From Nanobdellota archaeon (GTDB taxonomy: Archaea; Nanobdellota; Nanobdellia; Pacearchaeales; GW2011-AR1), in assembly GCA_021818475.1 (NCBI GenBank), contig JAKADZ010000002.1:536-64535 (forward strand): a stretch of 64,000 nucleotides of DNA, read 5' to 3'. Position 1 is the stretch's first letter. Each line of letters starts with the position of its first letter. The notes below the pieces were generated by a model. That model saw only the letters and a program-made list of their open reading frames with translations. It was not told where the DNA came from and did no database searches. This document shows positions 2,037-58,275 of the stretch, in pieces. The position numbers and the translations under genes are program-made.

Positions 2037-2532
2037 GGCTTGTATTTGATACTGCTTGTTTAGGTTTATTCCTGTTTTTTATTAGGAGATAAACAATTAA
2101 TGCAATAACAATAAAAATAATTATTCCGATAATTATCTGAAATGTTGTGCTGACAAAAAAGACTTCTTTATTTGAAGCAGTCTGAGAGGGAGAAGAGAAG
2201 TTATTCTGCTGAGTGGAAATATTATTAGAAGGAGTGGGGGAAGAGAAGTTATTCTGTATTTCAGAAGACGGAATGTTTTCCTGAGTAGGCGGAACAGACT
2301 GATTAGAAATATTTGAAGGAGAATTTAATGGAGGTGAAGGAATTGTTGTTGTAGGGTTAGAACAATCCTGCGGACAGGTTGATGCAGTTTCCCCTGGCTC
2401 ACAAATACCGTCGCCGCACATATTTTGAGTAGTCTGATTAAATGAACCCGCATCAAGACTTGATACTAATGGAGTTATAATTAAGAATATTAAAATTATT
2501 AATTCAATTGGGATTATTTTTATTTTTTTCAT
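2023..2532 (-). CDS. secreted S/T/P-rich protein with C-terminal membrane anchor
   Basis: N-terminal signal peptide, CGDGICEPGETASTCPQDC motif, low-complexity PSPT region, terminal TM helix; its start overlaps the stop of the upstream pilin-like gene. Confidence 0.6.
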   Translation of the reverse strand: MKKIKIIPIELIILIFLIITPLVSSLDAGSFNQTTQNMCGDGICEPGETASTCPQDCSNPTTTIPSPPLNSPSNISNQSVPPTQENIPSSEIQNNFSSPTPSNNISTQQNNFSSPSQTASNKEVFFVSTTFQIIIGIIIFIVIALIVYLLIKNRNKPKQAVSNTSPIQQ

Positions 2533-3689
2533 CTTATATATAAAATAACATTTGCTCTTTCATCATAAGTTTGACATGCACAACAGTGAGATGAAGACGG
2601 ACCTGCTTCACACCAACTATACCAAGCCCCATAAGACCCGCATGATTCACCGTGGCCATAATAGTTCTGATTAGACCACCCCCCATCTGGAGAAGAACAT
2701 CCTGAAGAACCCGTTGTTAAAATAGACCCCCATCCATCATTATAATTATACTTAACATAAAAAGTTTTTCCTGCATTAACATTATCATTCCCCCACTGAT
2801 TTGGATCCGATAAAAGATTATAAATATAAACATCAACAGGGTTTAGAGAATTATACCTGTATTGCTGTGTCCAGTGTCCTCTTGTTATTTTATCTCCGGA
2901 ATTTAAAATTGATTTTATAATTGAATCAGATAATTTAACTGTCGTTGCAGAGTTTGGGTCCAATACCGTTCCCACAGCATTAACATTCCAGCAATTGGAA
3001 GATGGAACTGCACCATTAAAAGAAGGATAATTTGGATTGTTTTCGGGACGGCATACTGCAGCTAAAGTCCATCCGCCCCCATCAGTAGTCATATCACAAT
3101 AAACCTGCATCAGATTATTTCCGTCAGGATTAATCCAGTAAATACCGTCTCCGCGTGAAGCACTCAAAAAACTTTTACAGGAAGTTCCGGGACTTGATTG
3201 GCTGTTAAGAGCATCAGAATTAGCTTTATAAAGGTCATAAGAATCAACTACATTTCCTGTTGTCTCCTGACCGTTTGAGGTAGCAATAGGAGCAATTGAA
3301 ATAGTTTTTATTCCAAATGGACCAAGGTCAGAATAAGGGATTGTAAATGTCTGAGTTCCGAGTTCCTGCAGCGAGGAGGGTTCTTTTATTACCTTGGAAT
3401 TTGTCCCGTCAGAAACAATAAAATTAATTGAGGTTAAATCTCCCTGCCCGGAATTTCGTTGAACTGTAACAGCAACATCCCCGTTAGGTTCAAGATTAAC
3501 ATTCTGCAATTTAAGACTGATGAACATTTGCCCAAATGAAGAACTTGCCTGCTGAGTTCCTGATTTTAGAATATTTGAAACAACAACCCAGACAACTCCG
3601 ATAGCGACGAGAGAAAGAACAATTATTATCAATGTAACAACAATGTCAGAAAGACCTTTTTTATTTCTCAGTTCTCCCCTTTTTTTCAT
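2529..3689 (-). CDS. pilin-like (class III signal peptide) surface protein with fibrinogen-related-like C-terminal domain
   Basis: KKGLSDIVVTLIIIVLSLVAIGVVWVV prepilin-type N-terminus; GIYWINPDG...VYCDMTTDGGGWT matches the fibrinogen C-domain hallmark. Confidence 0.7.
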   Translation of the reverse strand: MKKRGELRNKKGLSDIVVTLIIIVLSLVAIGVVWVVVSNILKSGTQQASSSFGQMFISLKLQNVNLEPNGDVAVTVQRNSGQGDLTSINFIVSDGTNSKVIKEPSSLQELGTQTFTIPYSDLGPFGIKTISIAPIATSNGQETTGNVVDSYDLYKANSDALNSQSSPGTSCKSFLSASRGDGIYWINPDGNNLMQVYCDMTTDGGGWTLAAVCRPENNPNYPSFNGAVPSSNCWNVNAVGTVLDPNSATTVKLSDSIIKSILNSGDKITRGHWTQQYRYNSLNPVDVYIYNLLSDPNQWGNDNVNAGKTFYVKYNYNDGWGSILTTGSSGCSSPDGGWSNQNYYGHGESCGSYGAWYSWCEAGPSSSHCCACQTYDERANVILYIR

Positions 3690-3731
3690 TCTATCAGATA
3701 GTTTTTAATATTTAAAAATTCTATTATAAAA

Positions 3732-4196
3732 ATGAATCAGATAATAATTGAAGAAAATAATTTTGACAGGGCAAGAAAATTAATTAATGAAAATAAAGAA
3801 AAGAAAATAATCTTTTCTTCTGACGATGATGAGATTAACAGAAAAATTCTTGAAAAAGAAAAGATAAATATGCTTTTGTTAAATCAATCAGGAAGAAAAG
3901 ATTTTCAGAAACAAAGAAATTCAGGATTCAATCAGGTTCTTGCAAAACTTGCGAAAAAGAATGAAGTCCTGATCGGAATCAACTTTGATGAAATAATAAA
4001 ATCAGAGGAGAGAGAAAAAGCCAAAATTTTAGCGAGAGTAATGCAGAATATTGAAATTTGCAAAAAAAATAAAGTAAAAATGAAATTTATCACAAAAAAT
4101 CAAAAGAGGAATATTCATGACTTAAAATCATTAGGTTTAGTCTTGGGTATGCCAACATGGATGACGAGCGATTTCGCAATGCCGGAAAAAATTTAG
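3732..4196 (+). CDS. RNase P protein component 3 (Rpp30-like), short form
   Basis: GFNQVLAKLAKKNEVLIGINF...LKSLGLVLGM aligns by eye with archaeal Rpp30 (GIDHVLAKL...LISLGVVIGM); the last about 10 codons are encoded by a repeat element. Confidence 0.65.
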   Translation: MNQIIIEENNFDRARKLINENKEKKIIFSSDDDEINRKILEKEKINMLLLNQSGRKDFQKQRNSGFNQVLAKLAKKNEVLIGINFDEIIKSEEREKAKILARVMQNIEICKKNKVKMKFITKNQKRNIHDLKSLGLVLGMPTWMTSDFAMPEKI

Positions 4197-4277
4197 TTGC
4201 ATTTGCGGGGTCGGGAGCAGAGCGATTTCACGAATGCTTGAAAATTTTTAAATGCAATGAGTGGAGTCGGGAGCAGA
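4166..4277 (+). repeat. two tandem copies of repeat module (gatttcRcgaatgc...aaatttaRntgca...gtcgggagcag)
   Basis: Copy a 4166-4220 and copy b 4220-4277; related to 13150-13210, 18490-18560 and 37430-37490. Confidence 0.7.
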
Positions 4278-4326
4278 AGCAACCTGTAAAAGGAACCTTT
4301 TAATATCCCTTTTCTTTAGAATTAAT

Positions 4327-5841
4327 ATGGCTGTTGCTGAAAAAATAATAGAATCTTTAAGTGCAAATGAGAGGAAAATATTACCTTACCTAAATGAAAA
4401 TATCGAAGAAATCTCGAAGAAATCTCATCTGGACAGGACTTCAGTTTTAAGAGCGTTGGAATATTTAGAAAACAAAGGAATTGTGACATTAAACCATGAA
4501 AAAAAGAAATTTGTGGAATTAGGAGTTAATGGTGCTTTATACAAAAACAAAGGTTTGCCGGAAAGAAGATTATTAAGTTTATTAAACGAAAAAACAATTT
4601 TGAAGCTCGAGGATGCACAAAAACAGAGTCAGCTTTCTGATGATGAATTCAAAGTTTCTCTAGGAGTTCTAAAGAAAAAAGCTCTTGTTGGAATAAGCAA
4701 TGGGAAAATATCACTTTCTGCACGCGGTGATGAAATTTCAAAAAAAAGTCTGGAAGAATTATTTCTGGAATCGCTTCCGATGGAATACAGACTATTAAAA
4801 CCGGAACAATTATTCGCATTAAAATCTCTTGAAAACAGAAGAGACATAATAAGGATAAAGGAAGAAGAATCAGTGGGAGTTAATGTAACAAAAGTAGGAG
4901 AAGAAATAGTAAAATCAGAAAAAAAAGTAGGAGAATTAATTGAAGCAGTTACCCCGCAAATGCTTGAAAAAGAATCGCTATGGAAAGGAAAAAAATTCAG
5001 AAGATATGATGTTACTTCACAATTGCCTTCAATAAATGGTGGCAAAAGGCATTTTGTAAATCAAGCTATTGATTATGCGAGAAAAGTCTGGACAGAGATG
5101 GGATTTCAGGAAATGAACGGGAATATGCTTCAAAGTTCGTTCTGGAATTTCGATGCTTTATTCACTGCACAAGATCACCCAGTAAGAGAAATGCAGGATA
5201 CTTTCTTTGTAAATAAAAAAGCTGAATTGCCGGATAAGAAATTAGTGAAAGCAGTAAAAGACAGTCATGAAAAAGGAGTTGACGGAAGCAAAGGATGGGA
5301 ATATGAATGGAATGAAGAAGAAGCCAAAAAAGTAGTTTTGAGGACACATACGACATGCTTATCCGCAAATACTCTTGGAAAGATGGATAAAAAAAATATT
5401 CCTGTAAAATTTTTCGCAATTGGAAAATGTTTCAGAAATGAAACTGTTGACTGGAGCCATGGGTTTGAATTCAATCAGTCAGAAGGGATAGTCGTCGGAA
5501 AAAATTTAAGTTTCAGAAATCTTCTGGGCTATTTGCAGGAATTTTTCAAAAAAATGGGATTTGAAAAAATTAGATTCCGCCCATCTTATTTCCCTTACAC
5601 AGAGCCAAGTGTAGAGATAGATGTATGGCATCCGGAGAAAAAAATATGGTTTGAACTGGGAGGAGCAGGAATTTTCCGTCCTGAAGTCACAATTCCATTA
5701 TTAGGAGAAAAAATGACAGTCCTTGCATGGGGCCCGGGTTTTGACAGAATGATTATGGATTATTACAACATAAAAGATTTGAGAGGACTTTACAAAAATG
5801 ATTTAAGTAAATTAAGAAAGATGAAATTTTGGATGAAATGA
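4327..5841 (+). CDS. pheS: phenylalanyl-tRNA synthetase alpha subunit
   Basis: Class II motifs FRNE (motif 2) and GPGFDRMIM (motif 3). Start set at ATG 4327 (MAVAEKI) because the upstream GTG extension lies in a repeat. Confidence 0.9.
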   Translation: MAVAEKIIESLSANERKILPYLNENIEEISKKSHLDRTSVLRALEYLENKGIVTLNHEKKKFVELGVNGALYKNKGLPERRLLSLLNEKTILKLEDAQKQSQLSDDEFKVSLGVLKKKALVGISNGKISLSARGDEISKKSLEELFLESLPMEYRLLKPEQLFALKSLENRRDIIRIKEEESVGVNVTKVGEEIVKSEKKVGELIEAVTPQMLEKESLWKGKKFRRYDVTSQLPSINGGKRHFVNQAIDYARKVWTEMGFQEMNGNMLQSSFWNFDALFTAQDHPVREMQDTFFVNKKAELPDKKLVKAVKDSHEKGVDGSKGWEYEWNEEEAKKVVLRTHTTCLSANTLGKMDKKNIPVKFFAIGKCFRNETVDWSHGFEFNQSEGIVVGKNLSFRNLLGYLQEFFKKMGFEKIRFRPSYFPYTEPSVEIDVWHPEKKIWFELGGAGIFRPEVTIPLLGEKMTVLAWGPGFDRMIMDYYNIKDLRGLYKNDLSKLRKMKFWMK

Positions 5842-6239
5842 AAAAACAAACAAACAATGATTGTATATTCTGCAAAATAATTGCAGGAGAAATTCCCGCG
5901 GCAAAACTTTGGGAAGATGAAAAATTTTTTATTTTTTTAGACCAGTCTCCGATAAATCCAGGACACACTTTAGTCATACCAAAGAAACATGCAGATTATC
6001 TTTTCGATTTAAATGAAAAAGAATATGCCGAATTAATGTTAAAGGCAAAAGAAGTTGCAAAAGTTTTGAAAAAGAAAATGGACTGCAAAAGAGTAGGCAT
6101 GGCGGTTGAAGGATTTTTTGTTCCGCATGTTCATGTTCATTTAGTTCCGGAAAATAAAGGGAATGAATTAAATCCTGAGAGGGCAAAACCAATGACTCCC
6201 GAGGAATTAAATAAAATAAAAGAAAGGATTTTGAAATAA
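5838..6239 (+). CDS. HIT-family nucleotide hydrolase
   Basis: CIFCKI start and histidine triad HVHVHLVP; ATGA start/stop overlap with pheS (the ORF track starts at 5829). Confidence 0.85.
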   Translation: MKKQTNNDCIFCKIIAGEIPAAKLWEDEKFFIFLDQSPINPGHTLVIPKKHADYLFDLNEKEYAELMLKAKEVAKVLKKKMDCKRVGMAVEGFFVPHVHVHLVPENKGNELNPERAKPMTPEELNKIKERILK

Positions 6240-6277
6240 AATGATAAAAAATAAAATTTCACAAATTAAAAAAACTT

Positions 6278-6341
6278 TGATTTCCCGAATAGAAAACCTT
6301 TCCCCATGGGTGGGCGGGTGGGAACTAGGAGGTGTCGTCGC
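6278..6341 (+). repeat. mosaic repeat copy with G4 core gggtgggcgggtggg (6308-6322) and junction motif ggaggtgtcgtcgc abutting the pheT ATG
   Basis: cgaatagaaaa...tttcccc...GGGTGGGCGGGTGGG consensus shared with other spacers. Confidence 0.75.
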
Positions 6342-8000
6342 ATGGCTAATGTAACATTTCCGACAAAACAATTTGAAAAAGAAATAGGGAAACTAGATGA
6401 GAAAATGCAAAACAAGATTGCAATGTTCGGAACTCCCTTGGAAAAATTTGATGATAATGAAATAGAAATCGAAGTTTTCCCGAATCGTCCTGACCTGCTT
6501 TCATATCACGGATTCAAGAGAAGTTTCCTTGCATTCTTAGAGAAAAAAACAGGATTAAAAGAGTACAAACTTAACAAACCGGAAAAGGATTTTGTGGTTA
6601 ATATAGACTCATCGGTAAAAGAGGTTCGTCCGTATACAGTTTGTGCAATTGTTAAAGGATTAAAATTTGACGATGATAAAATAAAAGAGTTAATAGACAT
6701 TCAGGAAAAACTGCATTTCACAATCGGAAGGAGAAGAAAAAAATTAGCTATAGGAATTTATCCTCTTGAAAAAATAAAACTTCCAATAACTTTCAAAGCG
6801 CTTGAACCAGATAAAATTAAATTTATCCCGCTTGAGATGGATCGGGAAATGACAGGGTTGCAAATTTTGCAAAAACATCCTACAGGGAGGGAATATGCGC
6901 ATCTTCTTGCAGGAAAAGCAAGATTTCCTATATTTATTGATGCAGAAGAAAAAATACTGAGTATGCCTCCAATCATTAATTCACATTTAACAGGAAAAGT
7001 AACAAATGACACAAAAGAAGTTTTCATCGAATGTTCGGGTTTTGATTTAAATGCGTTAAATAAATGTCTTAATATCATAACCACAAATCTTTCCGAAATG
7101 GGAGGGGAAATTTTCCAGATGGAAATTCGGGAGCATAAAAATAAAAAGATTACCCCTAATTTCACTCCGGATAAAATGAAGATTAGTATTGAAAATGCAA
7201 ATTCTCTTTTGGGGGTAAATCTGAAAGAGAAAGATATCGAAAAATTTTTGACCAAAATGGGATACAACTACAAAAAAGGGGTTGTTGAAGTTGCACCTTG
7301 GAGAACAGATGTCCTTCACGAAGTAGATTTAATAGAAGACATTGCAATTGCATATGGCTATGAAAATTTTATTCCTGAAATTCCCAAGATAACCTCAATA
7401 GGAAAAGAAGACAAAGAATGGATAGTAAAAAGAAAAATTGCGGAGATATTGACAGGATTAAACATTCTGGAAGTTTCAAATTATCATCTAACTTCAAAAA
7501 ATGACCAGTTTAAAAAAATGTCTTTACCGGAAGAAAAATTTATTGAAGTTGAAGAATCAAAAACAGATTATACTATTTTAAGGAAAGACCTAACTCATTA
7601 TTTGCTGAAAATTTTATCAGAGAATGTTGATTCAGAATATCCTCAGAGAATTTTTGAATCCGGAAAAATTTTCAGAGGGTTGGGCAGGCAGGACGAGATA
7701 GGCTCTGACTTGGCTGAAACAGAGAATCTCGCTCTTGCAATTGCTCCTGCAAATTTCACAGAAGTCAGGCAAATATTAGAATATCTTTTCAGAATGCTGA
7801 ATTTGGAAATAAAAATTTCAGAGCCGGAAAAAGCTCCTGGATACCTTATAGAAGGAAGAGTTGCAGAAGTTAAATTAGATGGTAAGCCAATTGGATTTTT
7901 GGGAGAAGTTCATCCAAGAATTTTGAGAAACTGGAAAATAAAAATGCCTGTATCAATCTTTGAAATCAACTTAGAAAATATATTTGAAAAACTAAGTTGA
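6342..8000 (+). CDS. pheT: phenylalanyl-tRNA synthetase beta subunit (archaeal type)
   Basis: Length and MANVTFPTKQF...FPNRPDLLS N-terminus typical of archaeal PheT; follows pheS; the upstream 12 codons of the ORF are repeat-encoded. Confidence 0.9.
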   Translation: MANVTFPTKQFEKEIGKLDEKMQNKIAMFGTPLEKFDDNEIEIEVFPNRPDLLSYHGFKRSFLAFLEKKTGLKEYKLNKPEKDFVVNIDSSVKEVRPYTVCAIVKGLKFDDDKIKELIDIQEKLHFTIGRRRKKLAIGIYPLEKIKLPITFKALEPDKIKFIPLEMDREMTGLQILQKHPTGREYAHLLAGKARFPIFIDAEEKILSMPPIINSHLTGKVTNDTKEVFIECSGFDLNALNKCLNIITTNLSEMGGEIFQMEIREHKNKKITPNFTPDKMKISIENANSLLGVNLKEKDIEKFLTKMGYNYKKGVVEVAPWRTDVLHEVDLIEDIAIAYGYENFIPEIPKITSIGKEDKEWIVKRKIAEILTGLNILEVSNYHLTSKNDQFKKMSLPEEKFIEVEESKTDYTILRKDLTHYLLKILSENVDSEYPQRIFESGKIFRGLGRQDEIGSDLAETENLALAIAPANFTEVRQILEYLFRMLNLEIKISEPEKAPGYLIEGRVAEVKLDGKPIGFLGEVHPRILRNWKIKMPVSIFEINLENIFEKLS

Positions 8001-8029
8001 TTTAAGAAACTTTGATTCAACTTTTTCCT

Positions 8030-8117
8030 GAAGTTGGGTTGCAGGATTTGTGAAAAACCCGCTGGAGGGTTCCATTTCGAAATTAATCTTGAAGAAATTT
8101 TTAAAAAGCTGGAGTAA
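8030..8117 (+). pseudogene. degenerate duplicate of the last about 31 codons of pheT
   Basis: Encodes EVGLQDL-stop, then after a frameshift FEINLEEIFKKLE-stop; the true C-terminus is EVHPRIL...IFEINLENIFEKLS. Confidence 0.7.
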
Positions 8118-8174
8118 TTTTAAAGTGATAACAATATAGAAAGATTTAAATAGATTTATTTTAAATTTATAAAT

Positions 8175-8594
8175 ATGAGTTCATTATTCAGTATAGATTA
8201 TACAGAAAAGACTTTACAGTTAGCAATACGAAATTTTGGAGAAGATAAAGGGAGAGGATTAGTTTATAACCCTAGACAGATTTATTCAAAACTAAATGAA
8301 CTTTCGGAACATTTTTATGAGGAATTTTTTCAACCTGGAGATTTTTCTATTGTTTCTATTAGGACAAGACAAGGACCTGGAGAGTTAGCAAAAATTTTAG
8401 AAAGAGAGTTTGGAGTAGAAAGTAATTTTGGAATTGGGGGAATTCTTGCCCAAATTAATTCAACTTATGAACAAGCAAAAAAGATACTTGATGATTTAAT
8501 TGCAAATCCAAAAAAATATTACGAGTCAGAAGAAGAAAAATTGTTTTTTGGAAAACCAAAAAAGATAAGTCCAATAAGGAAACTTTTGAAATAA
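8175..8594 (+). CDS. hypothetical protein (139 aa)
   Basis: Clean ORF, no motif recognised. Confidence 0.45.
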   Translation: MSSLFSIDYTEKTLQLAIRNFGEDKGRGLVYNPRQIYSKLNELSEHFYEEFFQPGDFSIVSIRTRQGPGELAKILEREFGVESNFGIGGILAQINSTYEQAKKILDDLIANPKKYYESEEEKLFFGKPKKISPIRKLLK

Positions 8595-8629
8595 ATCAGA
8601 TTTTTATATCCCTTTTTCTTTTATTAATT

Positions 8630-9076
8630 ATGAAACAAAAGAAAAAACTTTCTTCCCTAGATTATCTTCTAATTCCGACTGGTTGGGGAAGACAAAGAAA
8701 AAAACGAGCTCTCGAGGAAATTAATTCAGGCAGAAAAGTAAAAAATATGATCATTCTTAATGGAAACGATAGCGAAGAAGATATTTTGTATTTAGGAAAA
8801 ATTCTGAAAAGAAAAGAAAAGATAGGAATCGTGACTTTTCCGTTGCATTTTCAGGAATATAAAGAGATAATAAAGAAAGCACAAAAAGAAAAAAAATTCC
8901 CTAAAGAAATAAGAGTAGAAAATATTGCGACCCAACAAACAATAAAACAATTTATCTACGGTCTTCTTGGACTTGCAGAAGAAAGATTTGACAAAAGGGT
9001 GAATTATGCAAAAAACGAACATGAAAGTCATTTTAAGAAAAAATTAAAAAAATTTCTTAAAAAAATTCTGAAATAA
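8630..9076 (+). CDS. hypothetical protein (148 aa), lysine-rich C-terminus
   Basis: Clean ORF; only a weak DUF218-like impression. Confidence 0.45.
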   Translation: MKQKKKLSSLDYLLIPTGWGRQRKKRALEEINSGRKVKNMIILNGNDSEEDILYLGKILKRKEKIGIVTFPLHFQEYKEIIKKAQKEKKFPKEIRVENIATQQTIKQFIYGLLGLAEERFDKRVNYAKNEHESHFKKKLKKFLKKILK

Positions 9077-9114
9077 TTATTTCCCTGAAAAATAGCAGAA
9101 ATGAAAAATAAAAA

Positions 9115-9639
9115 TTAAGAAATTATTGTTTGGTCTACAAATACTTTTGAATTTTCAAGAAATGATGCATTTTTTTCGTTTTTAACCGTGGTAAAAATTG
9201 CAGTAACATTTCTGCTTCTCAGGTTATTTATTATGTAATGTAAAAATTTAAGTACAGTGTCTTCAGGATGATAAATAAGCAAAGTTGAAAGTGAATCGAA
9301 GATTACACAGTCTATTTTATATTTCAGCAGTGCATTGCATATAACCAGACTCATTTGGGTTAGATTTTCTGCAGAAAAAACAAAACTCACCTGCTTCTCC
9401 TTTATAGAAACTGCTTCATTTGCACTCGAGACAGCATCTATAAAAAAAAATTTCTTCTTGTCAATTTTATTTTTTTCCATCCCTTTAATCAGCTGGAGAT
9501 AGCCTTTATTCAGGCTTACATAACCTATTCTGTTAAATTTTTTTGGCAGTTGTTTGACTAACTTAATCATAGAATCATTATATTTTTCACTTTCAAAAAT
9601 AACCAGTGCAATATCATTTTTATTAAATCCTTTTAACAT
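9115..9639 (-). CDS. KaiC/RecA-fold-like protein with no visible Walker A
   Basis: hhhhDSLSTLL Walker-B-like strand and KaiC-like layout, but no GxxGxGK[ST]; 1 nt downstream of the receiver gene. Confidence 0.5.
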   Translation of the reverse strand: MLKGFNKNDIALVIFESEKYNDSMIKLVKQLPKKFNRIGYVSLNKGYLQLIKGMEKNKIDKKKFFFIDAVSSANEAVSIKEKQVSFVFSAENLTQMSLVICNALLKYKIDCVIFDSLSTLLIYHPEDTVLKFLHYIINNLRSRNVTAIFTTVKNEKNASFLENSKVFVDQTIIS

Positions 9640-9640
9640 T

Positions 9641-10009
9641 TTATTTTAATATTTTTTTAATCCTCTTTTCAAAATCTTCCAGTTCTATCGGTTTAAGAAT
9701 GTAATCTGCAGGCTTTAATTTGTTCATCTCTTCTTTCCCGGATTCAACAACTTGTGCTACTGTAAGAAATACAATTTTTTGGTTTTTTGTTTTTGGATTT
9801 TTTCTTATTTCTTTTACACAATCTATTCCTGACATCCCGGGCATGAATATATCCATAATAACAAGGTCAAATTTTTCATTTTTAAGTAATCTTATTGCTT
9901 CTCTCCCGTCCCTTGCGAGAGCAGATTCAAAGCCCATTCTTTTTATTAAATAACTTATAGAATTACGAATATCTTCCTCATCATCAACAATCAGCACTCT
10001 TTTTTTCAT
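9641..10009 (-). CDS. single-domain response regulator (CheY-like receiver)
   Basis: VLIVDDEED, LVIMDIFMPGMSG (phospho-Asp) and ILKP conserved Lys. Confidence 0.85.
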   Translation of the reverse strand: MKKRVLIVDDEEDIRNSISYLIKRMGFESALARDGREAIRLLKNEKFDLVIMDIFMPGMSGIDCVKEIRKNPKTKNQKIVFLTVAQVVESGKEEMNKLKPADYILKPIELEDFEKRIKKILK

Positions 10010-10050
10010 TTCTGTTAATAGTTGGATTTTTTATAATTTAAATGTTGTGT

Positions 10051-12357
10051 TTATTGAATGGGAAGGGTAAAATAAAAAGTAGTATTTCCCTTAAATTTAC
10101 TCTCTGCCCAAATTTTTCCCCCATGCATCTCAATTATTGTTTTCGAAATATTCAGGCCTAATCCTGTCCCTTTCTTTTTTGTCTCAACTTCTCCAATCTG
10201 CGAAAAGGGTTTGAACAATTTTTCCATATCTTTCTTTTTAATTCCTATTCCATTGTCAGTTACCCGGACAAGAATATTTTTACCTTCTGCTTTTGTACTA
10301 ACTGTCACCCATGGATTATTTGAATTATTAAATTTGATGGCATTATCAATGAGATTGATTAAAACCTGATTAATTTTTTCTGCATCCATTTTTAATTTCG
10401 GCACTTTTCTCAAATTTAATTTTATGTCTACCTTATTTCCCTCCGCTAATGGCTTCATTACTTCGACGCTGTCCCGAATGATTTTATTAATATCTTCCTC
10501 CCGTTTAATTAAAGCCATATTCTGTTTCATCCTGCTCAGATTTAAAATTTGTTCAAGAAGTTGGTTTAATCTTTTTATATTTCTTGAAATAATCCCCAAA
10601 CTTTCCACTTGTCTTTGATTAAGTTTCCCGAGATCTCCCCGCTGAAGACTGTCTGCCTGTATTAAAATTGGAGTGATAGGGGTCTTAATCTCATGAGCAG
10701 TGAGATTTATGAAATCAGATTTCATTTTGTCGAGAGTCTCTAATTGCTTGTAAGAAAATTTAAGCTTCTTTACACTTTCTTCAAGTTCAGATTTGTTGTG
10801 CATTAATTCTTCAGTTCTTATTTTAACTTTTTCTTCTAGCTGCTCCTGATACATCTTCTTTTCGGTTATATCGTGGATTATTATCAAATCTGCATATTTT
10901 CCGCTGTAATTTATTTTTCTCGCATTTAATTCCGCAAATATTTTTTTATTCCCCCTGCCAACAAGGATAGTTTCATATTTTGACGGAACATTCTCTCCCC
11001 TCAATCTTTTTCTATAATTTAAAATTAATTCGGGAATTTTCTCTGGAGAGACAAACTGCATAAAAGATTTACCAATAATTTTTTTCAAATCTAACCCGCT
11101 CATTTTTTCAATTGCATGATTTGCATATTTGATTCTGGTATCCTGGACGATAATAATCCCGTCATTCGCTTTTTCTGAAACAGTCTTGTATTTTTCCTCA
11201 CTTTCTTTTAATTTGTCCTCTGCTCTTTTTCTTCTGTTTATATCTTCCGTATGAACCACAAAATATGCTACCTTTCCGTTTAGGTCTTTCACCACCGCGA
11301 TGCTTAATGCAACCCAGATTATTTCTCCATTTTTATGGATATATCTTTTTTCCAAATATCCATAATCTTTTTTTCCAGAAAGTAAATCCATTGTAAGATT
11401 TTTTGTCTTTTCAACATCCTCGGGATATGTTATCTGAAGGTATGCTTTTGTAAGCAGTTCTTCCTCAGAATACCCGGTAATCCTGCACAATGCTTTATTT
11501 ACCTGAAGCCATTTTCCATCAAGTGCAACCAAAGAAGTTCCTATACCGGAAAATTCGAAAATTTTTCTGAATCTCTCCTCGCTTTCTCTTAATCTGTCTT
11601 CTGTTTCTTTTCTTTTATTTATATTTTCAATGCGGAATAAAAAGTATTTGGGTTTATTATTCGAATCCTTTATCATTGCAATGTTTAGTGCAACCCATAT
11701 TACTCTTCTGTCCTTTGAAACAAATTTCTCTTCAAATGATTCATAATCTTCTTTCCCGGATAAAATTTTTAGAATTGCCTTTTTTGTTTGTTCAGTCTCT
11801 TCTGGAAAGATTAACTGATTGTATGTCTTTTTCAGAAGTTCTTTTTCTGAATATCCCATCATCCTGCACAGGGCTTTATTTACCTGCAAAAATTTTCCGT
11901 CCATTTTTACTATGGCAATTCCCAAAACTGAATGTTCGAAAATTTTTCTGAATCTCTCCTCGCTTTCTCTTAATTTTTCTTCTGCTTCTCTGTCTGCAGT
12001 GATATTTCTAATTCTGCACTGGACTAATTTTTTATAATCTACAGAGTAAACATTTCCTGTCAATTCTACTTCAATTTTCTCCCCGCTTTTTGTCTTTGCA
12101 GATAAACTTTTATAATGAACTTCTTTTTTGGCTTTTAGTTCTCTGAATATTTTTTCGCATCTTTCTTTTTCCCCAAAAAATTTTACATCCCACGGTTTTC
12201 TGCCAATCAAACCCTCCTTTTTATAACCTAAAATTTTAGTTACTGCAGGATTAACATTTTCTATCACACCGGTTTCATAATTTAATAAAAGAATTCCATC
12301 TTGAAAAGTTTCAAACAGTTTTTCAAATCTTAATTTATACTCCTCTTTTTCTTCCAC
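10051..12357 (-). CDS. cytoplasmic sensor histidine kinase with four PAS domains
   Basis: Four PAS-like repeats, H-box LTAHEIKTP, N-box NLIDNAIKF, G1 DNGIGI, G2 GTGLGL; no TM segment. Confidence 0.9.
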   Translation of the reverse strand: MEEKEEYKLRFEKLFETFQDGILLLNYETGVIENVNPAVTKILGYKKEGLIGRKPWDVKFFGEKERCEKIFRELKAKKEVHYKSLSAKTKSGEKIEVELTGNVYSVDYKKLVQCRIRNITADREAEEKLRESEERFRKIFEHSVLGIAIVKMDGKFLQVNKALCRMMGYSEKELLKKTYNQLIFPEETEQTKKAILKILSGKEDYESFEEKFVSKDRRVIWVALNIAMIKDSNNKPKYFLFRIENINKRKETEDRLRESEERFRKIFEFSGIGTSLVALDGKWLQVNKALCRITGYSEEELLTKAYLQITYPEDVEKTKNLTMDLLSGKKDYGYLEKRYIHKNGEIIWVALSIAVVKDLNGKVAYFVVHTEDINRRKRAEDKLKESEEKYKTVSEKANDGIIIVQDTRIKYANHAIEKMSGLDLKKIIGKSFMQFVSPEKIPELILNYRKRLRGENVPSKYETILVGRGNKKIFAELNARKINYSGKYADLIIIHDITEKKMYQEQLEEKVKIRTEELMHNKSELEESVKKLKFSYKQLETLDKMKSDFINLTAHEIKTPITPILIQADSLQRGDLGKLNQRQVESLGIISRNIKRLNQLLEQILNLSRMKQNMALIKREEDINKIIRDSVEVMKPLAEGNKVDIKLNLRKVPKLKMDAEKINQVLINLIDNAIKFNNSNNPWVTVSTKAEGKNILVRVTDNGIGIKKKDMEKLFKPFSQIGEVETKKKGTGLGLNISKTIIEMHGGKIWAESKFKGNTTFYFTLPIQ

Positions 12358-12394
12358 CTTTAATTAATAATAGAACTAACAATTTAAATTTTTC

Positions 12395-12423
12395 TTAAGC
12401 CTGTGCTGAGGATTGGGCCTCAC
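12395..12423 (-). pseudogene. displaced partial copy of the tRNA-Thr 3' end (T-arm-like hairpin plus acceptor strand)
   Basis: ttaagcctgtgctgaggattg is identical to 12486-12506, 91 bp away. Confidence 0.7.
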
Positions 12424-12488
12424 GTTTGCTCGACCTCATTCGTCTAAAAGCCAAATGAAACCACGTTCAATGTTCAATCCTTAATTTT

Positions 12489-14465: not shown

Positions 14466-14582
14466 AGCCCCATAGTACAGCGGTCAAGTATATCGGCCTC
14501 TGGAGCTCACGAGAGAGTCGTTCACTCTCTCCGTATAGAACAGAGAGAGCCGGTGACCCAGGTTCGAATCCTGGTGGGGCTA
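14466..14582 (+). tRNA. tRNA-Gln(CUG) with 44-nt intron at 37/38
   Basis: AGCCCCA acceptor, D arm GTAC/GTAT, anticodon stem TCGGC/GCCGG, T arm CCAGG-TTCGAAT-CCTGG; intron 14504-14547. Confidence 0.75.
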
Positions 14583-48623: not shown

Positions 48624-48863
48624 TTAATCTCTTTTTAAAACTCTGATAAATAACAAAACTGCTACCAAAGCAGTTGCTAATCCCATTATAACATCAACAA
48701 CTCTTGCAACAGCCACATCATTGAAAAGCTGTGTAAAACTAGCCAAAAATATTCCGACAGTCATTCCTGTAACTCCCCAAATAAAAGCAAAAGCTATCAT
48801 AAGGATTAATACAACTTTTACGAATGCATTTGGAATAAATTCAGCTTCACCTTTTTGATTCAT
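48624..48863 (-). CDS. small two-TM membrane protein (79 aa)
   Basis: Last gene of the co-directional surface cluster. Confidence 0.45.
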   Translation of the reverse strand: MNQKGEAEFIPNAFVKVVLILMIAFAFIWGVTGMTVGIFLASFTQLFNDVAVARVVDVIMGLATALVAVLLFIRVLKRD

Positions 48864-48885
48864 TTTTTACCTCCTTTTTGATAGT

Positions 48886-50874
48886 TTATAATTTATTATG
48901 CACTAAAATATTATCTGCATAATAATAATGATAATTATCTATTTCCAGATTATAAGTAATTTGGGGGTCATAAACTTTTTTAATACTTGTAATGATAACC
49001 TTTTCTCCAGAAGAATTGATTAAATAATCACCAACTTTAGCATTTCCGATTTCAGTAAGATGACCATTAACAATTATTGGATGATTAGGAGTTACTTCCA
49101 AATATCCATTAATTAATAGATAGTAATTTCCCATTTCATAAGGATTATGTTCAAATGTCTTTGAAACCCTTGAAATTACTTGTTTCTTAGTTAATTCATT
49201 ATAACTTACAACTTTATCCCCTACTTTTACATCTTCAATATTTTTCAAACTGCCATCTGCCATTAATACTTTAGTTCCAGCTAAGAAACAAGCTTGCACT
49301 CCAACAACATAAGCTTGACTATATTGAATTCCCCCGTTTCCTTTCTTTCCAGTACCAACACTTACCGTAGGATCAGGTGTGGTTGGGGTAGTAGTAGCAG
49401 AAGAGATTAAATTGGATTCGTAACTAGTTGGAACAGTGATAGCTGGAAGGACAACCCCCCCTAATGAAGCACCAGCCTGACTATTTAAAGAAGCATATGT
49501 AGTTGCATCAACTGAAGTATATTGTATGGTTCCATCAGGATTAGTACCTGTTGCTACCAGATATAGAGGGGATGAAACTGTAGTAGGACTTGTAGTAGTC
49601 GTGGTAGTCGTGGTAGTCGTGGTAGTCGTAGTAGTTGATGGAGTGGTGGAAGTTGCTGGAGTTGATGAAATACCTGTAGAACCTGGTGCAGCATTACATC
49701 CTGGTCCAGAAGTACAACCTTGATTAACTATTGGAGTATAGACAGTAACTACTTGTGGCGGGGTGTAGGATGGAATAACCAAAGGAGTTAGGGCGATAGT
49801 TGGTGTAGCAGAAGGTAGAATAGGGTCAATTAAGCCGACAGAGGGTAATTCAGAAATTGGAGTCGGAATAAATCCTGGTGTAGGCTGACCCCCGTAAGGA
49901 TTTACATAACCATAACTAGGGGTAGTAGTACTAACAGCAGGAAGGATAGCTCCATGAGGGGAATTTGTTCCTCCAGTTTGTGAAGAAGAGGGATTGTAGC
50001 AACCAGCTCCCAAATAACATGCTTTAACTGTTCCGGGAGTTGGGTCTCCAAAAAAATTATTATTACATGGAGCAGAAGGAGAAGTAGCAACTATTGTATT
50101 AAAATTATTATTCGCGCCGTATGAAACAAACCATGTTCCTGAAGGAATATTACAGGTTCCCCCCTCATCTGCGCATTTTGTGCATCCTGAAACCTGAATA
50201 TCACAAGGTGAATGAGACACATTCGGAGCAAATGTTATAGCAGCAAGAAATTCTCCTGAACTCCCAAGAGGAATAAAATAATCATTGTTAGGGTTAGAAT
50301 TATGCAGTTGGTAACAAACAGAATTCATCATAATTTTATTAGAATAATCCTGTGGTTTGAGTTCATAACAAAGCCCTCGAATTCCTGCTTTTTGACATTG
50401 AGCTTCAGTTCTAAAACCAGAACCGTGAATTGGGAGATGCACATCAGAATTGGGAGTAACAACTATTGAAGAAGTTACATCATTAAAATTATTATTGACA
50501 AAACAATCATCATTGGAAGATAAAGTCAGGAGATTTCCCTGAAAATTATCATCCGAATATAACTCAACAGTATAACCTGAACTAACTTTAATTGAAGATA
50601 AATCATTATCTTTTATTCCCAAAGCCTGCAACTGACTGAGAGAATAAGCTCCCGGATATAATCCAACCGAATATCCCCCATAACTACAGTCCTGATAAAC
50701 TGTTACAGGAGCTAATATAGATGTAACTGAAGTTGTAGTAGTTGAAGTTGAAGTTGACTTATCAACATTAGACCCAGGAGTAACTCCAGCAGCAGGAGAT
50801 ATAGCCAAAGGAACTAAAAAAAATAAGAATACAAAGCTGATAACTAAAACAGGCAGTATTTTTTGATTGTTCAT
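48886..50874 (-). CDS. secreted protein: signal peptide, beta-gamma-crystallin-like domain, Cys-rich region, S/T/P linker with Thr15 run, C-terminal Hint (intein-like) domain
   Basis: Hint at 48889-49290: CFLAGTKVLMADG (block A), TPNHP (block B), terminal ILVHN followed only by KL. Crystallin-like region: YQDCSYGGYS...DLSSIKV...LYSDDNFQG...VTSSIVV. Confidence 0.75.
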   Translation of the reverse strand: MNNQKILPVLVISFVFLFFLVPLAISPAAGVTPGSNVDKSTSTSTTTTSVTSILAPVTVYQDCSYGGYSVGLYPGAYSLSQLQALGIKDNDLSSIKVSSGYTVELYSDDNFQGNLLTLSSNDDCFVNNNFNDVTSSIVVTPNSDVHLPIHGSGFRTEAQCQKAGIRGLCYELKPQDYSNKIMMNSVCYQLHNSNPNNDYFIPLGSSGEFLAAITFAPNVSHSPCDIQVSGCTKCADEGGTCNIPSGTWFVSYGANNNFNTIVATSPSAPCNNNFFGDPTPGTVKACYLGAGCYNPSSSQTGGTNSPHGAILPAVSTTTPSYGYVNPYGGQPTPGFIPTPISELPSVGLIDPILPSATPTIALTPLVIPSYTPPQVVTVYTPIVNQGCTSGPGCNAAPGSTGISSTPATSTTPSTTTTTTTTTTTTTTTSPTTVSSPLYLVATGTNPDGTIQYTSVDATTYASLNSQAGASLGGVVLPAITVPTSYESNLISSATTTPTTPDPTVSVGTGKKGNGGIQYSQAYVVGVQACFLAGTKVLMADGSLKNIEDVKVGDKVVSYNELTKKQVISRVSKTFEHNPYEMGNYYLLINGYLEVTPNHPIIVNGHLTEIGNAKVGDYLINSSGEKVIITSIKKVYDPQITYNLEIDNYHYYYADNILVHNKL

Positions 50875-50875
50875 T

Positions 50876-51565
50876 TTATCCGCATTTAACCTTTAAATCA
50901 TCAATTTCTTTTTGTTGCTCTTTTATAGCTTCAACCAAAACTCCGACGAGATTTCCATATTCAACAGATTTTAATCCGGTAACTTCATTGGTTGAAACTA
51001 ATTGAGGATAAACTTTTTCAACATCTTGAGCAATTAAACCCACATCTGCTCTTCCGTCGGATTTCCAGTTAAATGAAACTCCCTGAAGTTGCTCTACTTT
51101 AGATAATGCATCCTGAAGTTCACTGATGTTAGTTTTTAATGATCTGTCTGAAGTATAAAGAAAAGCAGTGCCTGATATGTAATTAGCAGAAAGATTTCCG
51201 CCTATTGCAACATTTCCATTTATACTGGTAAGCAAATTCTTGCTCCAGTCAGTAGGTGCAATCAAAAGTTGTGTTCCTGTTTTAGGTTCAATATAAATTT
51301 GACCAGTTGGATTGTATAAACCCCACATTTCTAATTTTGTCTGTCCATAAGTTGAAGAGGAACCTGGGCAGGTTGAAGCGTCACATGTAGAAAATAATTC
51401 CTGATTAACACCTGCACTAAAATCAATTTGAGCCGCAGAATGTCCCGGATTTGGAACAGCTGCATAAACTCCTGCTGCAACTAATGCAATAATTCCCAAA
51501 GTAATTAAAAAGTAAATAGCTTTATTAGACAAACTAGTCTTTTTTAACCCCTTTTTATTCACCAT
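50876..51565 (-). CDS. signal-anchored protein with C-terminal peptidase-S74 (intramolecular chaperone) domain
   Basis: YTSDRSLKTNI (Ser-Lys dyad context), GVSFNWK, VGLIAQDVEKVYPQLV, VEYGNLVGVLVEAIKEQQKEIDDL. Confidence 0.7.
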   Translation of the reverse strand: MVNKKGLKKTSLSNKAIYFLITLGIIALVAAGVYAAVPNPGHSAAQIDFSAGVNQELFSTCDASTCPGSSSTYGQTKLEMWGLYNPTGQIYIEPKTGTQLLIAPTDWSKNLLTSINGNVAIGGNLSANYISGTAFLYTSDRSLKTNISELQDALSKVEQLQGVSFNWKSDGRADVGLIAQDVEKVYPQLVSTNEVTGLKSVEYGNLVGVLVEAIKEQQKEIDDLKVKCG

Positions 51566-51616
51566 ATCGAATATAAGAATGAAGGGTTTTTAAATATTTT
51601 TATTATTTTAAGAAAA

Positions 51617-52147
51617 TTAATTGAATTCTGTTTTCTTTTTCAGTTTTCTGAGGAGAAAAATTAAAATTACAATTAATAACAATGGAAGGAAATAAAAAAT
51701 TTTTCCGTATGAAATTTCGTCTGTTGTTTTTCCTGTTAAAGATAAAAATTTTTCTCCGTTGACATTCAGTTCAATCCATGCTCCAATTCCATATGAAGAA
51801 TTATTTAATTTGTACATCAAAGCACCATAATAATTCCCGCTGTTTTTTGAAGAAATGCAGATGGGATAAGTTCCTGATTTTATTTCTGAAGGAATCTGCG
51901 GATAAATCCCAAGGCTGTCCGAGGAAATTTTATAATCAATCAAATTTTTGCTGTTTTCATTGCTCCATTTTATTTCCCCGTTGAAAATGCGGTAATCATC
52001 TCCCAAAAGGGTAAAATTCCTGCAGACGATTTCATTTGTTTTTTCAGAAATTTTTATTGTTCCTGGGGAAATACCAAGAGTTAATGCAGAAAAAAAGTGA
52101 AGGAAAAAAATTATTAAAATAAAAGCGAAGAAAAATATTTTTTTCAT
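51617..52147 (-). CDS. secreted protein with C-terminal TM anchor (176 aa)
   Basis: Signal peptide, beta-rich body, terminal hydrophobic helix plus KKK. Confidence 0.5.
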   Translation of the reverse strand: MKKIFFFAFILIIFFLHFFSALTLGISPGTIKISEKTNEIVCRNFTLLGDDYRIFNGEIKWSNENSKNLIDYKISSDSLGIYPQIPSEIKSGTYPICISSKNSGNYYGALMYKLNNSSYGIGAWIELNVNGEKFLSLTGKTTDEISYGKIFYFLPLLLIVILIFLLRKLKKKTEFN

Positions 52148-52185
52148 CTAATCAGTTTTTTGAATTAATATTTAAAAATTTAGAT

Positions 52186-52692
52186 TCATGCAGGCATGAC
52201 CCAGAGAATTAAGTTTGTTGAAAGGTTTAATCCACTGGTTATTGTATCAGGGTAATCCGTCAAATCAAGTTTAATGCAGGAATTATATTGATCACCATCT
52301 CCTCCCCTGTAAGTGGTTGGGGGATTTAAAGTCGAAGAAGTCAAATTATGACTGCGATAATAAGTAACATTATGCCAGGTAGAACAATCATCATCTGTAG
52401 CAAATTCGAGATAATCAAAGATTTTATCTGCATTTTCTTCTAAAATCGGGCTCAGTTTTAAGTCTAAATCCCCGACATTTTTAATAGTGATATTTTTTGA
52501 AATAGTTTCGTAACCTGCAGTTGTTTCCCCAAGATTAATATTATTCGGAAAAATTTCTATCATCGCAGTTGGCTGGGAAATATTAACTGAAACTGTTAAA
52601 CTTGAATTGGTATATGTATCAGCGCTTCCGGATGAGCAAAAGTAAGTCATAGAGAAGAGTAAGAAAAAAATCACAACCCCTTTTTTATTCAT
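52186..52692 (-). CDS. secreted protein (168 aa)
   Basis: Signal peptide; ITIKNVGDLDLKL beta-sandwich-like pattern. Confidence 0.5.
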   Translation of the reverse strand: MNKKGVVIFFLLFSMTYFCSSGSADTYTNSSLTVSVNISQPTAMIEIFPNNINLGETTAGYETISKNITIKNVGDLDLKLSPILEENADKIFDYLEFATDDDCSTWHNVTYYRSHNLTSSTLNPPTTYRGGDGDQYNSCIKLDLTDYPDTITSGLNLSTNLILWVMPA

Positions 52693-58157: not shown

Positions 58158-58275
58158 GAGGCTGTAGCTCAGCCAGGTTAGAGCACTGCTCTGATAGACT
58201 CAAACAAGTTTGGTTTGCCGAGTTCGTTTGACTTCAGCAAGGCAGGGGTCCACAGTTCAAATCTGTGCAGCCTCA
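58158..58275 (+). tRNA. tRNA-Ile(GAU) with 43-nt intron at 37/38
   Basis: GAGGCTG/CAGCCTC acceptor, anticodon stem CTGCT/GGCAG, loop CTGATAA, T arm CACAG-TTCAAAT-CTGTG; intron 58197-58239. Confidence 0.75.

Follow-up and report, generated by a model that had tools for sequence, protein, structure and literature searches.

We analysed a cluster of five genes at positions 48624-52692 of a 64,000-nucleotide stretch (the window) of the genome of a Nanobdellota archaeon of the Pacearchaeales (contig JAKADZ010000002.1). The order of the five open reading frames (ORFs) was read off the ORF list: they encode proteins of 168, 176, 229, 662 and 79 amino acids (aa), are separated by 38, 51, 1 and 22 nucleotides (nt), and lie, like all features within them, on the minus strand. 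The 168-aa protein (52186-52692) is predicted to be exported and has a hydrophobic segment at aa 5-22. The 176-aa protein (51617-52147) has an N-terminal signal, a C-terminal membrane anchor and a basic tail (RKLKKKTEFN), its hydrophobic segments falling at aa 1-27 and, as the C-terminal membrane segment, aa 145-170. The third gene (50876-51565) encodes a 229-aa fibre protein composed of an N-terminal signal or anchor, a conserved motif at the mature N-terminus, a short stalk and a C-terminal S74 chaperone. Only 1 nt after its stop codon is the start codon of the fourth gene (48886-50874), whose product is a predicted exported multidomain adhesin of 662 aa. The last gene (48624-48863) encodes a DUF378-like, two-pass membrane protein of 79 aa with two hydrophobic segments. 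A first-pass annotation made from the sequence alone had described these five ORFs as all exported or membrane-bound; the ORFs exist as described, and a hydrophobic N-terminal segment in each of the five proteins, which may be either a cleaved signal or a membrane anchor, agrees with that view.

The C-terminus of the 229-aa protein matches Peptidase_S74 (Pfam PF13884, 8.7e-18, 64.8 bits against a cutoff of 22, over aa 139-190). Comparison with PHROGs recovered phage tail-fibre C-termini (1e-34), with matches that reach upstream to aa 73, and the matches in the PDB were 8JOV and, as the best, 6F45, the distal subunit of the S16 long tail fibre (S16 gp37). A homology search with the fibre protein returned 625 relatives, of which the best 120 were short proteins of 130-385 aa whose named sources were Nanoarchaeota/Pacearchaeota and bacteria of the candidate phyla radiation (CPR). 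Named relatives of the 229-aa protein come from metagenome-assembled genomes (MAGs) of Nanoarchaeota, Pacearchaeota and Woesearchaeota, which places the archaeon among the DPANN. In an alignment of 37 full-length members of the fibre family (alignment A1), Y137, S139, D140 and K144 were invariant. S139 and K144 form a Ser-Lys dyad within an S-D-x-x-x-K motif at the N-terminal edge of the S74 domain, and with these residues intact the earlier S74 call holds. The site FLYT^SDRSLK, in which the Ser139 codon occupies 51149-51151, lines up with the cleavage site of the S16 gp37 chaperone, DLNVS^SDRRIKK (PMC7917993), and is the predicted autocleavage site. The domain downstream of it (aa 139-229; 50879-51151), delimited from Pfam, PDB matches and an AlphaFold2 (AF2) model, is an intramolecular chaperone that we predict to leave after the fibre has trimerised. 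In the AF2 monomer the predicted local distance difference test score (pLDDT) is 76-89 across most of aa 151-229, with a dip to ~60 at aa 161-180, and 42-70 in the stalk (aa 40-140); the overall value is 65.7.

The N-terminal module of the fibre (aa 1-53; 51407-51565) consists of a basic stretch, a hydrophobic helix that ends in G-V-Y-A, and the sequence P-N-P-G-H-S-A-A-Q-I-D-F; aa 14-35 are modelled as a confident helix. Other archaeal fibres begin in the same way, with a basic stretch and a hydrophobic helix up to G-V-Y-A followed by N-x-G-H-x4-I-D-F, and Y18, G32, V33, Y34, A35, G41 and H42 are each at least 90% conserved among the 37 sequences. The CPR fibres differ from this archaeal N-P-G-H...I-D-F pattern, having a short signal peptide and then W-T-E-P-T-x-x-P-P-x-G-N-x-x-A-P-I-N. 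Across the CPR loci L015-L043, the W-T-E-P-T motif directly follows the signal peptide in at least six S74 fibres for which the first ~50 aa were examined. Together, the archaeal and CPR patterns suggest a conserved handle for proximal attachment or for assembly. The archaeal module also occurs on three further proteins of contig L008 that have no S74 domain. In these paralogs, of 200, 548 and 228 aa, the resemblance to the fibre is confined to the N-terminal signal and an 'AYH...IDF' motif, and the C-termini are Cys-rich (...CKRRAKIECI, ...CRRRATIRCI); the motif looks like a handle common to several types of cargo. A class III (pilin-type) signal peptide was considered for the fibre and rejected, as the archaeal N-termini lack the [KR][GA]-hydrophobic pattern and end in a G-V-Y-A that resembles a signal peptidase I site. 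A pilin-like leader was found only in a Bdellovibrionaceae MAG (L023, 5218-6564), in which the S74 protein preceding a YFIP gene (see below) has a type IV pilin-like N-terminus (...SRGETLIAVMVAAAIG...); the fibre of that lineage may be displayed as a pilin-like protein.

The 662-aa protein encoded immediately downstream of the fibre is built from several distinct modules. A homology search with its whole length, in which low-complexity Thr-rich candidates saturated the word index, gave three hits. It carries a beta/gamma-crystallin-like domain (aa ~56-147; 50434-50709; Pfam Crystall, 1e-4); the ortholog on contig L006 scores 26.5 bits with the same model, above the cutoff of 25, and the region is 54% identical to P0001, which carries PF00030. 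Next come a module that we refer to as YFIP (aa ~152-227; 50194-50421; custom hidden Markov model (HMM), 1.8e-37; alignments A2 and A10) and a Cys-rich module (aa ~228-292; 49999-50193) with a signature like that of rhamnose-binding (SUEL-type) lectins, which is kept in orthologs (alignment A8). A profile search with the Cys-rich module recovered the L-rhamnose-binding lectin 5H4S (5.4e-8 summed over three repeats) and CSL3 (7e-5), and Pfam Gal_Lectin had no match in the 662-aa protein. A Thr/Pro/Ser-rich linker of 236 aa follows (aa 293-528; 49291-49998), of which 64% is S/T/P/G/A, including 51 Thr and 30 Pro. This linker resembles the glycosylated stalks that precede the C-terminal anchoring signals of other surface proteins. 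Within the linker, a poly-Thr run (49590-49645) is three Thr shorter in contig L002, where the protein is otherwise identical (659 rather than 662 aa), and its length therefore differs within the population.

The adhesin ends in a Hint autoprocessing domain of the bacterial intein-like (BIL) type (aa 529-660; 48895-49290), followed by Lys-Leu and the stop codon. The best-scoring Pfam model was PT-HINT (PF07591, 3e-13, 50.7 bits against a cutoff of 27.7), PF05203 also matched (34.4 bits against 32.1), and the best solved relative was the bacterial intein-like domain 2LWY (3.4e-14). In the alignment with 2LWY, C529 corresponds to residue 1, T-P-N-H to block B, and the terminal L-V-H-N660 to L-V-H-N. 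With Cys1, TxxH and the terminal His-Asn all intact, the earlier identification of this domain as Hint is confirmed, and the catalytic residues are kept in L006, L008 and P0002. All four proteins have Lys at +1, and after the terminal His-Asn come two residues in the 662-aa protein and two to six in the orthologs. Since nothing but Lys-Leu follows, the domain has neither a toxin nor a genuine C-extein behind it, and its +1 residue is non-nucleophilic. BIL domains lack a +1 nucleophile and mostly cleave rather than splice (PMC7664689), and by its residues the domain has the signature of an A-type BIL. It shares with the A-type BIL of C. thermocellum (2LWY) the Cys1, the block-B TxxH, the terminal His-Asn and the lack of a +1 nucleophile; unlike classic BILs, which are internal, it is archaeal and sits at the extreme C-terminus with a 'C-extein' of two residues. 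A Hint domain at the C-terminal end of a secreted protein is also the arrangement of Hedgehog/Hog proteins, and an N-terminal signal, a cargo and a Hint are all present here; unlike in Hedgehog, no adduct-binding (sterol-recognition) region follows the Hint. Given the C-terminal position on a secreted protein, N-terminal cleavage is the main expected outcome (PMC7664689). A terminal BIL-type Hint on a secreted archaeal adhesin is unusual. We rejected the possibility of a true mobile intein, as only Lys-Leu follows, no endonuclease is inserted in the domain, and the protein that carries it is secreted and variable. Orthologs of the adhesin that lack the Hint, on L012 (7764-9461) and L094 (1796-3466), end instead in a different conserved domain of ~170 aa, which begins G-x-K-V-I-C-T-E-A-H-R-L-G-Y, occupies the position of the Hint and, like it, starts at a Cys. 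This tail (VICTEAHRLGY...) had no Pfam, PHROG or PDB assignment and no toxin match, and one match to NatB (0.006) looks spurious.

The gap between the S74 stop codon and the start codon of the partner gene is exactly 1 nt not only in the window but also on contigs L006, L008, L010 and L012. The partner in these five archaeal genomes always contains YFIP, and neither the Hint nor the overall architecture is common to them. YFIP is a Cys-containing module of ~70 aa common to genes downstream of S74, with the signature G-[YF]-R ... C-x-x-[VI]-x-N ... [YL]-F-[IV]-P-T-x-T-x-x-E-W-x-x-F ... P-x-x-[VI] ... C. An exhaustive profile search returned 680 cluster representatives (E <= 1e-3), which puts the family at no fewer than 680 clusters at 50% identity; a homology search with a 25-sequence YFIP alignment, in which 95 candidates were scored, gave a single hit. 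Among the 150 representatives listed, which are proteins of 91-1,465 aa, most have YFIP at aa ~25-100, directly after the signal peptide. Across 145 members, the 25 most frequent Pfam families include no model of the module itself. The C-terminal Pfam domains of these 145 proteins include Laminin_G_3 (6), TSP1 (4), RCC1, Fib_succ_major and Fibrinogen_C (3 each), and Kelch, the clostridial neurotoxin receptor-binding domain and the phage adhesin GP38 (2 each). Because these are binding-type domains, the YFIP proteins look like adhesins. An AF2 model of YFIP, built from an alignment of 58 sequences (pLDDT 75.7, predicted template modelling score 0.61), shows a small sheet packed on one helix; Foldseek searches with it against the PDB and BFVD found no neighbour, every match having E > 1 and TM < 0.35. 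In a scan of five YFIP proteins against PHROGs, no family matched convincingly. We propose that YFIP is a fibre-docking module and represents an uncharacterised domain family.

We then surveyed the association between the two genes, defining a pair as a YFIP gene that follows an S74 gene on the same strand at -60 to +150 nt, as found with custom HMMs. The sample comprised 80 species-representative genome loci with an S74 relative and 80 viral S74 loci from IMG/VR. The pair was present at 13/21 CPR loci, 3/7 archaeal loci in the genome scan (with L006, L008, L010, L012 and L094 additional to these), one of the two loci from Bdellovibrio-like MAGs and 2/5 loci from unclassified 'bacterium' MAGs. 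It was absent from the 45 loci of other bacteria, mostly Bacteroidota, and from all 80 viral loci. Several of the negative CPR, DPANN and Bdellovibrio-like loci have a YFIP gene elsewhere in the locus, or lie on a contig that ends before the next gene. In DPANN archaea, CPR and Bdellovibrio-like MAGs alike, S74 always preceded YFIP, both genes lay on one strand, and the gaps ranged from -14 to +64 nt. A reciprocal check began from four YFIP proteins found independently of S74: three of the four lie in arrays led by an S74 gene, and the fourth is just beyond MCM, like a paralog on L006. A scan with the archaeal YFIP alignment returned one metagenome locus and two weak viral loci, and those two had no S74, Hint, YFIP or N-terminal-motif HMM match. 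Within this sample, the two-gene core is common to DPANN, CPR, Bdellovibrio-like and a few unclassified bacterial MAGs. Full-text searches of the literature, aimed mainly at S74, Hint or tail-fibre proteins in DPANN and CPR, turned up no description of an S74-YFIP module; the 'tail fibers' named in one DPANN cryo-tomography paper are host-made filaments.

Some loci pair one fibre with more than one adhesin. On L177/L180 and on L179 a single fibre gene is followed by two YFIP genes. In L177 (198-4411) and L179 (153-4594), both of unassigned origin, the two YFIP proteins have different C-termini (GP38, Laminin_G_3), with other small ORFs between them. On L179, a YFIP protein with a weakly scored GP38 domain is encoded directly after the S74 fibre gene, and a second protein, encoded after it, has a clear GP38 match. 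These arrays look like alternative tips for one fibre.

The arrangement recalls the distal tail fibre of phages T2 and S16. In T-even phages the strand just before the gp37 cleavage site becomes, once exposed, the tip on which gp38 docks, the S16 gp37 chaperone being cleaved off to expose it; gp38 itself combines a conserved attachment domain at the N-terminus with a variable receptor-binding domain at the C-terminus (PMC7917993). This prompted a comparison of S74 proteins in the strand that precedes the cleavage site. An aromatic motif, [FY][LIFY]Y-x^SD, was present in 22/25 S74 proteins linked to a YFIP gene, in 10/59 other cellular S74 proteins and in 5/91 viral ones, and the ten motif-positive proteins of the second group were mostly from CPR, DPANN or Bdellovibrio-like genomes. 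Such a motif fits a tip that could recognise YFIP; shared ancestry of one S74 subfamily would explain it equally well.

Taken together, these observations make it probable, in our view, that the locus encodes a cell-surface fibre and adhesin pair like the gp37/gp38 tip of phages, made and exported by the cell. As in T2/S16, there is a fibre gene that ends in an S74-type chaperone with a predicted x^SDxxxK cleavage site; the best PDB match of its product is S16 gp37. The fibre gene adjoins an adhesin gene (by 1 nt in five archaea, and paired at 13/21 CPR loci) whose product combines a conserved attachment part with a variable receptor-binding part, as do the N- and C-terminal domains of gp38 (PMC7917993). 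Some other YFIP proteins (2/145, plus that of L179) even carry a GP38 domain. Unlike gp37 and gp38, both proteins bear export leaders, and their genes lie in a cellular chromosome without virion genes; the stalk is only ~100 aa, the YFIP attachment module is not detectably related to the gp38 N-domain, and the adhesin carries crystallin and lectin-like domains as well as a terminal Hint. The fibre also shares a C-terminal domain with the S-D-x-x-x-K dyad motif with endosialidase and tailspike chaperones (Peptidase_S74 of endoNF and of the T5 L-shaped fibre) and with eukaryotic MYRF. It differs from these in its cargo: in place of a large enzyme or virion fibre, the domain here ends a tiny archaeal protein that is exported and has a conserved module at its N-terminus, and for which trimerisation and cleavage are predicted from sequence. 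In the S74-YFIP system the attachment domain would be new and the assembly exported by the cell, its mechanistic steps being extrapolated from the sequence features. Cell-surface attachment, most likely in contact with another cell, is the best reading of the locus, as the first-pass annotation had proposed.

By analogy with its family, the 229-aa protein would be exported and would trimerise outside the cell, with the S74 chaperone nucleating the fold. The Ser139/Lys144 dyad, whose residues are present, would then cut at FLYT^SDRSLK and the chaperone would leave, exposing a tip of three aromatic F-L-Y strands. As gene linkage and motif co-occurrence suggest, the 662-aa protein could dock on this tip through YFIP and present its beta/gamma-crystallin and rhamnose-lectin-like domains as binding surfaces, which would probably bind glycans of a host cell. 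Finally, the Hint at the end of the Thr/Pro-rich stalk, with its catalytic residues in place, would undergo an N-S acyl shift at Cys529 and remove itself, and the resulting thioester would be hydrolysed or passed to another nucleophile. This Hint step is clade-specific and dispensable for the module as a whole.

Several points weigh against this reading. The link between the fibre and YFIP comes from gene order and motif co-occurrence, both of which could be co-inherited in one S74 subfamily. YFIP shows no homology to the gp38 attachment domain, its model is of moderate confidence with no fold neighbour in the PDB or BFVD, and in the 662-aa protein it sits internally (aa 152-227) and does not immediately follow the signal peptide. 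No GP38 (PF05268) match was found in this protein, either. Its own Crystall match, at 22.8 bits, falls just below the cutoff, and the lectin similarity is limited to an ~18-residue NxVFGDPxxGTxK motif. The mature stalk of the fibre is only ~100 residues long and is modelled with low confidence, and the N-terminus of the fibre may be either a cleaved signal or a membrane anchor, on which the geometry of display would depend.

We examined the position of the genes by comparing synteny across contigs that encode relatives of the fibre (L006, L008, L010 and L012). In the window the cluster is flanked by TBP (2.9e-57) on one side and MCM (7e-90) on the other. The same five genes lie between TBP and MCM on L006. 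On L012 the five genes follow TBP with two toxin-antitoxin pairs interspersed, and the contig stops before MCM; the five-gene order is indeed conserved in these two close relatives. The toxins on L012, ParE-like (4388-4874) and PemK-like (6256-6836), each with an antitoxin, are inside the island of surface-protein genes, which indicates that the island tolerates insertions. On L008 the interval from TBP to MCM contains a membrane protein, the fibre, the Hint protein and four extra secreted paralogs (200, 130, 548 and 228 aa; 9081-12448, between the Hint protein and MCM), without the 168-, 176- and 79-aa genes. These three genes are also missing from L010, in which the fibre and its partner are in a different neighbourhood. 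Among relatives the flanking genes are 84-86% (MCM), 95-96% (TBP) and 73-82% (ligase) identical, whereas the island proteins are only 35-61% identical, as is typical when surface proteins experience diversifying pressure. The block constitutes an island of fast-evolving surface proteins that is conserved at one fixed position in the chromosome. It had been described as inserted between mcm and tbp; it is not a recent insertion, the same TBP-MCM site being occupied in diverged relatives. The five-gene set is conserved only at about the level of genus or family, and the two-gene core across DPANN and CPR.

The main alternative to a docked adhesin is co-location without interaction. The island would then be a hot spot of fast-evolving exported proteins in which the fibre and the YFIP protein act separately, as adhesins or S-layer decorations, and YFIP could be a generic export or folding module unrelated to docking. 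The variable content of the island, with four extra paralogs and no 168-, 176- or 79-aa genes on L008 and two toxin-antitoxin pairs on L012, is compatible with this, as are the YFIP genes that lie 1-4 kb from S74 or past MCM (L027, L037, L041, L045, L006 12326-12964, L178) and the lack of a recognisable fold neighbour for YFIP. We nevertheless consider it unlikely, given the strict same-strand S74-YFIP order at -14 to +64 nt across three groups, with the gap of 1 nt in five archaea, the co-occurrence of the aromatic pre-cleavage motif with a YFIP partner, and the occurrence, immediately behind a fibre gene, of YFIP fused to GP38 domains. Should the docking model prove wrong, the locus would remain a clear case of a hypervariable surface island whose chromosomal site is fixed.

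The first-pass annotation had instead seen the functional principle in the pairing of two self-cleaving modules, the five genes forming one contact apparatus whose cooperating parts are matured by Hint and S74. The conservation of the five-gene order in L006 and L012 and the intact catalytic residues of both modules would suit such an apparatus. The Hint is present, in the same architecture, in the YFIP partners of the window locus, L006, L008 and P0002; it is absent from those of L010, L012, L019, L094, P0003 and every CPR pair, and occurs in only one of the 150 YFIP representatives listed. With the Hint often missing, and the three small genes missing from L008 and L010, the five-gene set is best seen as a local elaboration; YFIP is the conserved partner of S74 and the Hint is optional. 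An integrated five-gene apparatus is in our judgement improbable. The annotation had also known of no described system with this composition. On a jumbo-phage contig (L118, IMGVR_UViG_3300017971_002536, 168 kb), a gene for a 1,761-aa S74 fibre is directly followed by an overlapping 308-aa ORF (3126-9321 for the two), the C-terminal half of which is a Hint (CFLYGTKV...; phrog_38766 'virion structural protein', 1.4e-8). While this arrangement could be counted in favour of cooperating Hint and S74 modules, it is also a viral precedent for an S74 gene beside a Hint-terminated gene, and the combination is not unique to this archaeon. On L107 and L108 a Hint occurs within large structural ORFs near S74 fibres.

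Tail-fibre genes left in the chromosome by a provirus, a tailocin or a contractile injection system would account for the match of the S74 region to many phage tail-fibre PHROGs (1e-34), for the match of the Hint region to phrog_21587 (5e-11), and for the abundance of S74 in viral contigs, a relative being encoded in at least 437 among 600 pattern-matching viral stretches examined. This origin is very improbable. No capsid, terminase, portal, integrase, sheath or baseplate genes were found in the 64-kb window or in the 102-kb contig, and diverged relatives have the island at the same TBP-MCM position. Both proteins start with an export leader, a feature missing from virion proteins that are assembled in the cytoplasm, and YFIP was found at 0/80 viral S74 loci and had no convincing PHROG family in the five proteins scanned. 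The large ORFs of the window outside the cluster are housekeeping genes (PheRS, PolB, FtsZ, RFC, SAM synthetase, acetate kinase), further genes encode DNA ligase, rubrerythrin and eIF-1A, and the window has ~32% G+C, intron-containing tRNAs and archaeal gene content. The surrounding window is an ordinary archaeal chromosome, and the earlier statement that there is no provirus context stands.

A polymorphic toxin system of the Rhs/CdiA type, in which PT-HINT releases a C-terminal toxin and the 79-aa protein confers immunity, is equally hard to credit: the best Pfam model is indeed pretoxin HINT (PF07591) on a secreted multidomain protein, a small gene lies immediately downstream, and the C-terminus is swapped among orthologs (the ~170-aa tail of L012 and L094), but with two residues after His-Asn (two to six in orthologs) there is no toxin domain to release and no evident toxin/immunity logic, the DUF378-type membrane protein is kept even where the partner lacks the Hint (L012), and the alternative tail has no toxin match.

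Returning to the fibre with a docked adhesin, a wider reading is possible, which we put forward tentatively and think rather doubtful as a whole. The S74-YFIP pair would be a widespread device related to phage tips with which ultra-small episymbionts and micro-predators (DPANN, CPR and Bdellovibrio-like organisms) recognise and hold a host, swappable YFIP adhesins would set the host range, and in this archaeal clade the Hint thioester would, as in Hedgehog, join the Thr/Pro-rich stalk by a covalent bond to a lipid, to some component of the envelope or to the fibre. The presence of a thioester-forming domain at the end of a long stalk makes covalent anchoring worth testing. If true, it would be the first chemistry of this kind described in archaea, and the Hint on an archaeal adhesin could reveal a new use of Hint thioester chemistry. 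To our knowledge, the means by which DPANN and CPR locate hosts and hold on to them are a central open question, in which type IV pili are almost the only known players. The two-gene module provides a concrete candidate for a host-recognition device whose adhesin heads (lectin, TSP1, Kelch, Gp38) look swappable. It also provides a search rule: in uncultivated genomes, candidate determinants of host range can be sought as S74 genes that have an aromatic F-L-Y^SD tip and are followed by a YFIP gene.

The remaining three proteins of the island, of 168, 176 and 79 aa, are local accessory envelope proteins. Orthologs of the 168-aa protein in L006 and L012 are 41-43% identical. Its fold is possibly Ig-like, to judge from weak matches below cutoffs (choice-of-anchor D, 0.004; HYDIN/VesB Ig, 0.078), and a profile search of the PDB was empty. 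The 176-aa protein, which is 59-61% identical to its orthologs in L006 and L012 and keeps the C-terminal tail in them, was assigned to no family and had only weak Ig-like matches in the PDB (best 0.0095); by hhalign it is unrelated to the 168-aa protein. The 79-aa gene keeps its position in L006 and L012. The protein itself has no match to DUF378 in Pfam, and its L006 ortholog, 35% identical (E 1e-3), matches PF04070 (DUF378, 4.4e-7, 30.1 bits against a cutoff of 25).

Elsewhere in the window, a 386-aa ORF (2529-3689, minus strand) matches the fibrinogen C-terminal globular domain over a short stretch (7.4e-6). Its product may be a further surface protein of the adhesion type, Fibrinogen_C being also among the C-terminal domains of YFIP proteins. 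Two tRNA genes of ~117 nt on the plus strand (14466-14582 and 58158-58275) were detected by Rfam and missed by ARAGORN; they are presumably intron-containing archaeal tRNAs. Finally, a 768-aa sensor histidine kinase with multiple PAS domains is encoded at 10051-12357 (minus strand), in an otherwise reduced, DPANN-type genome.

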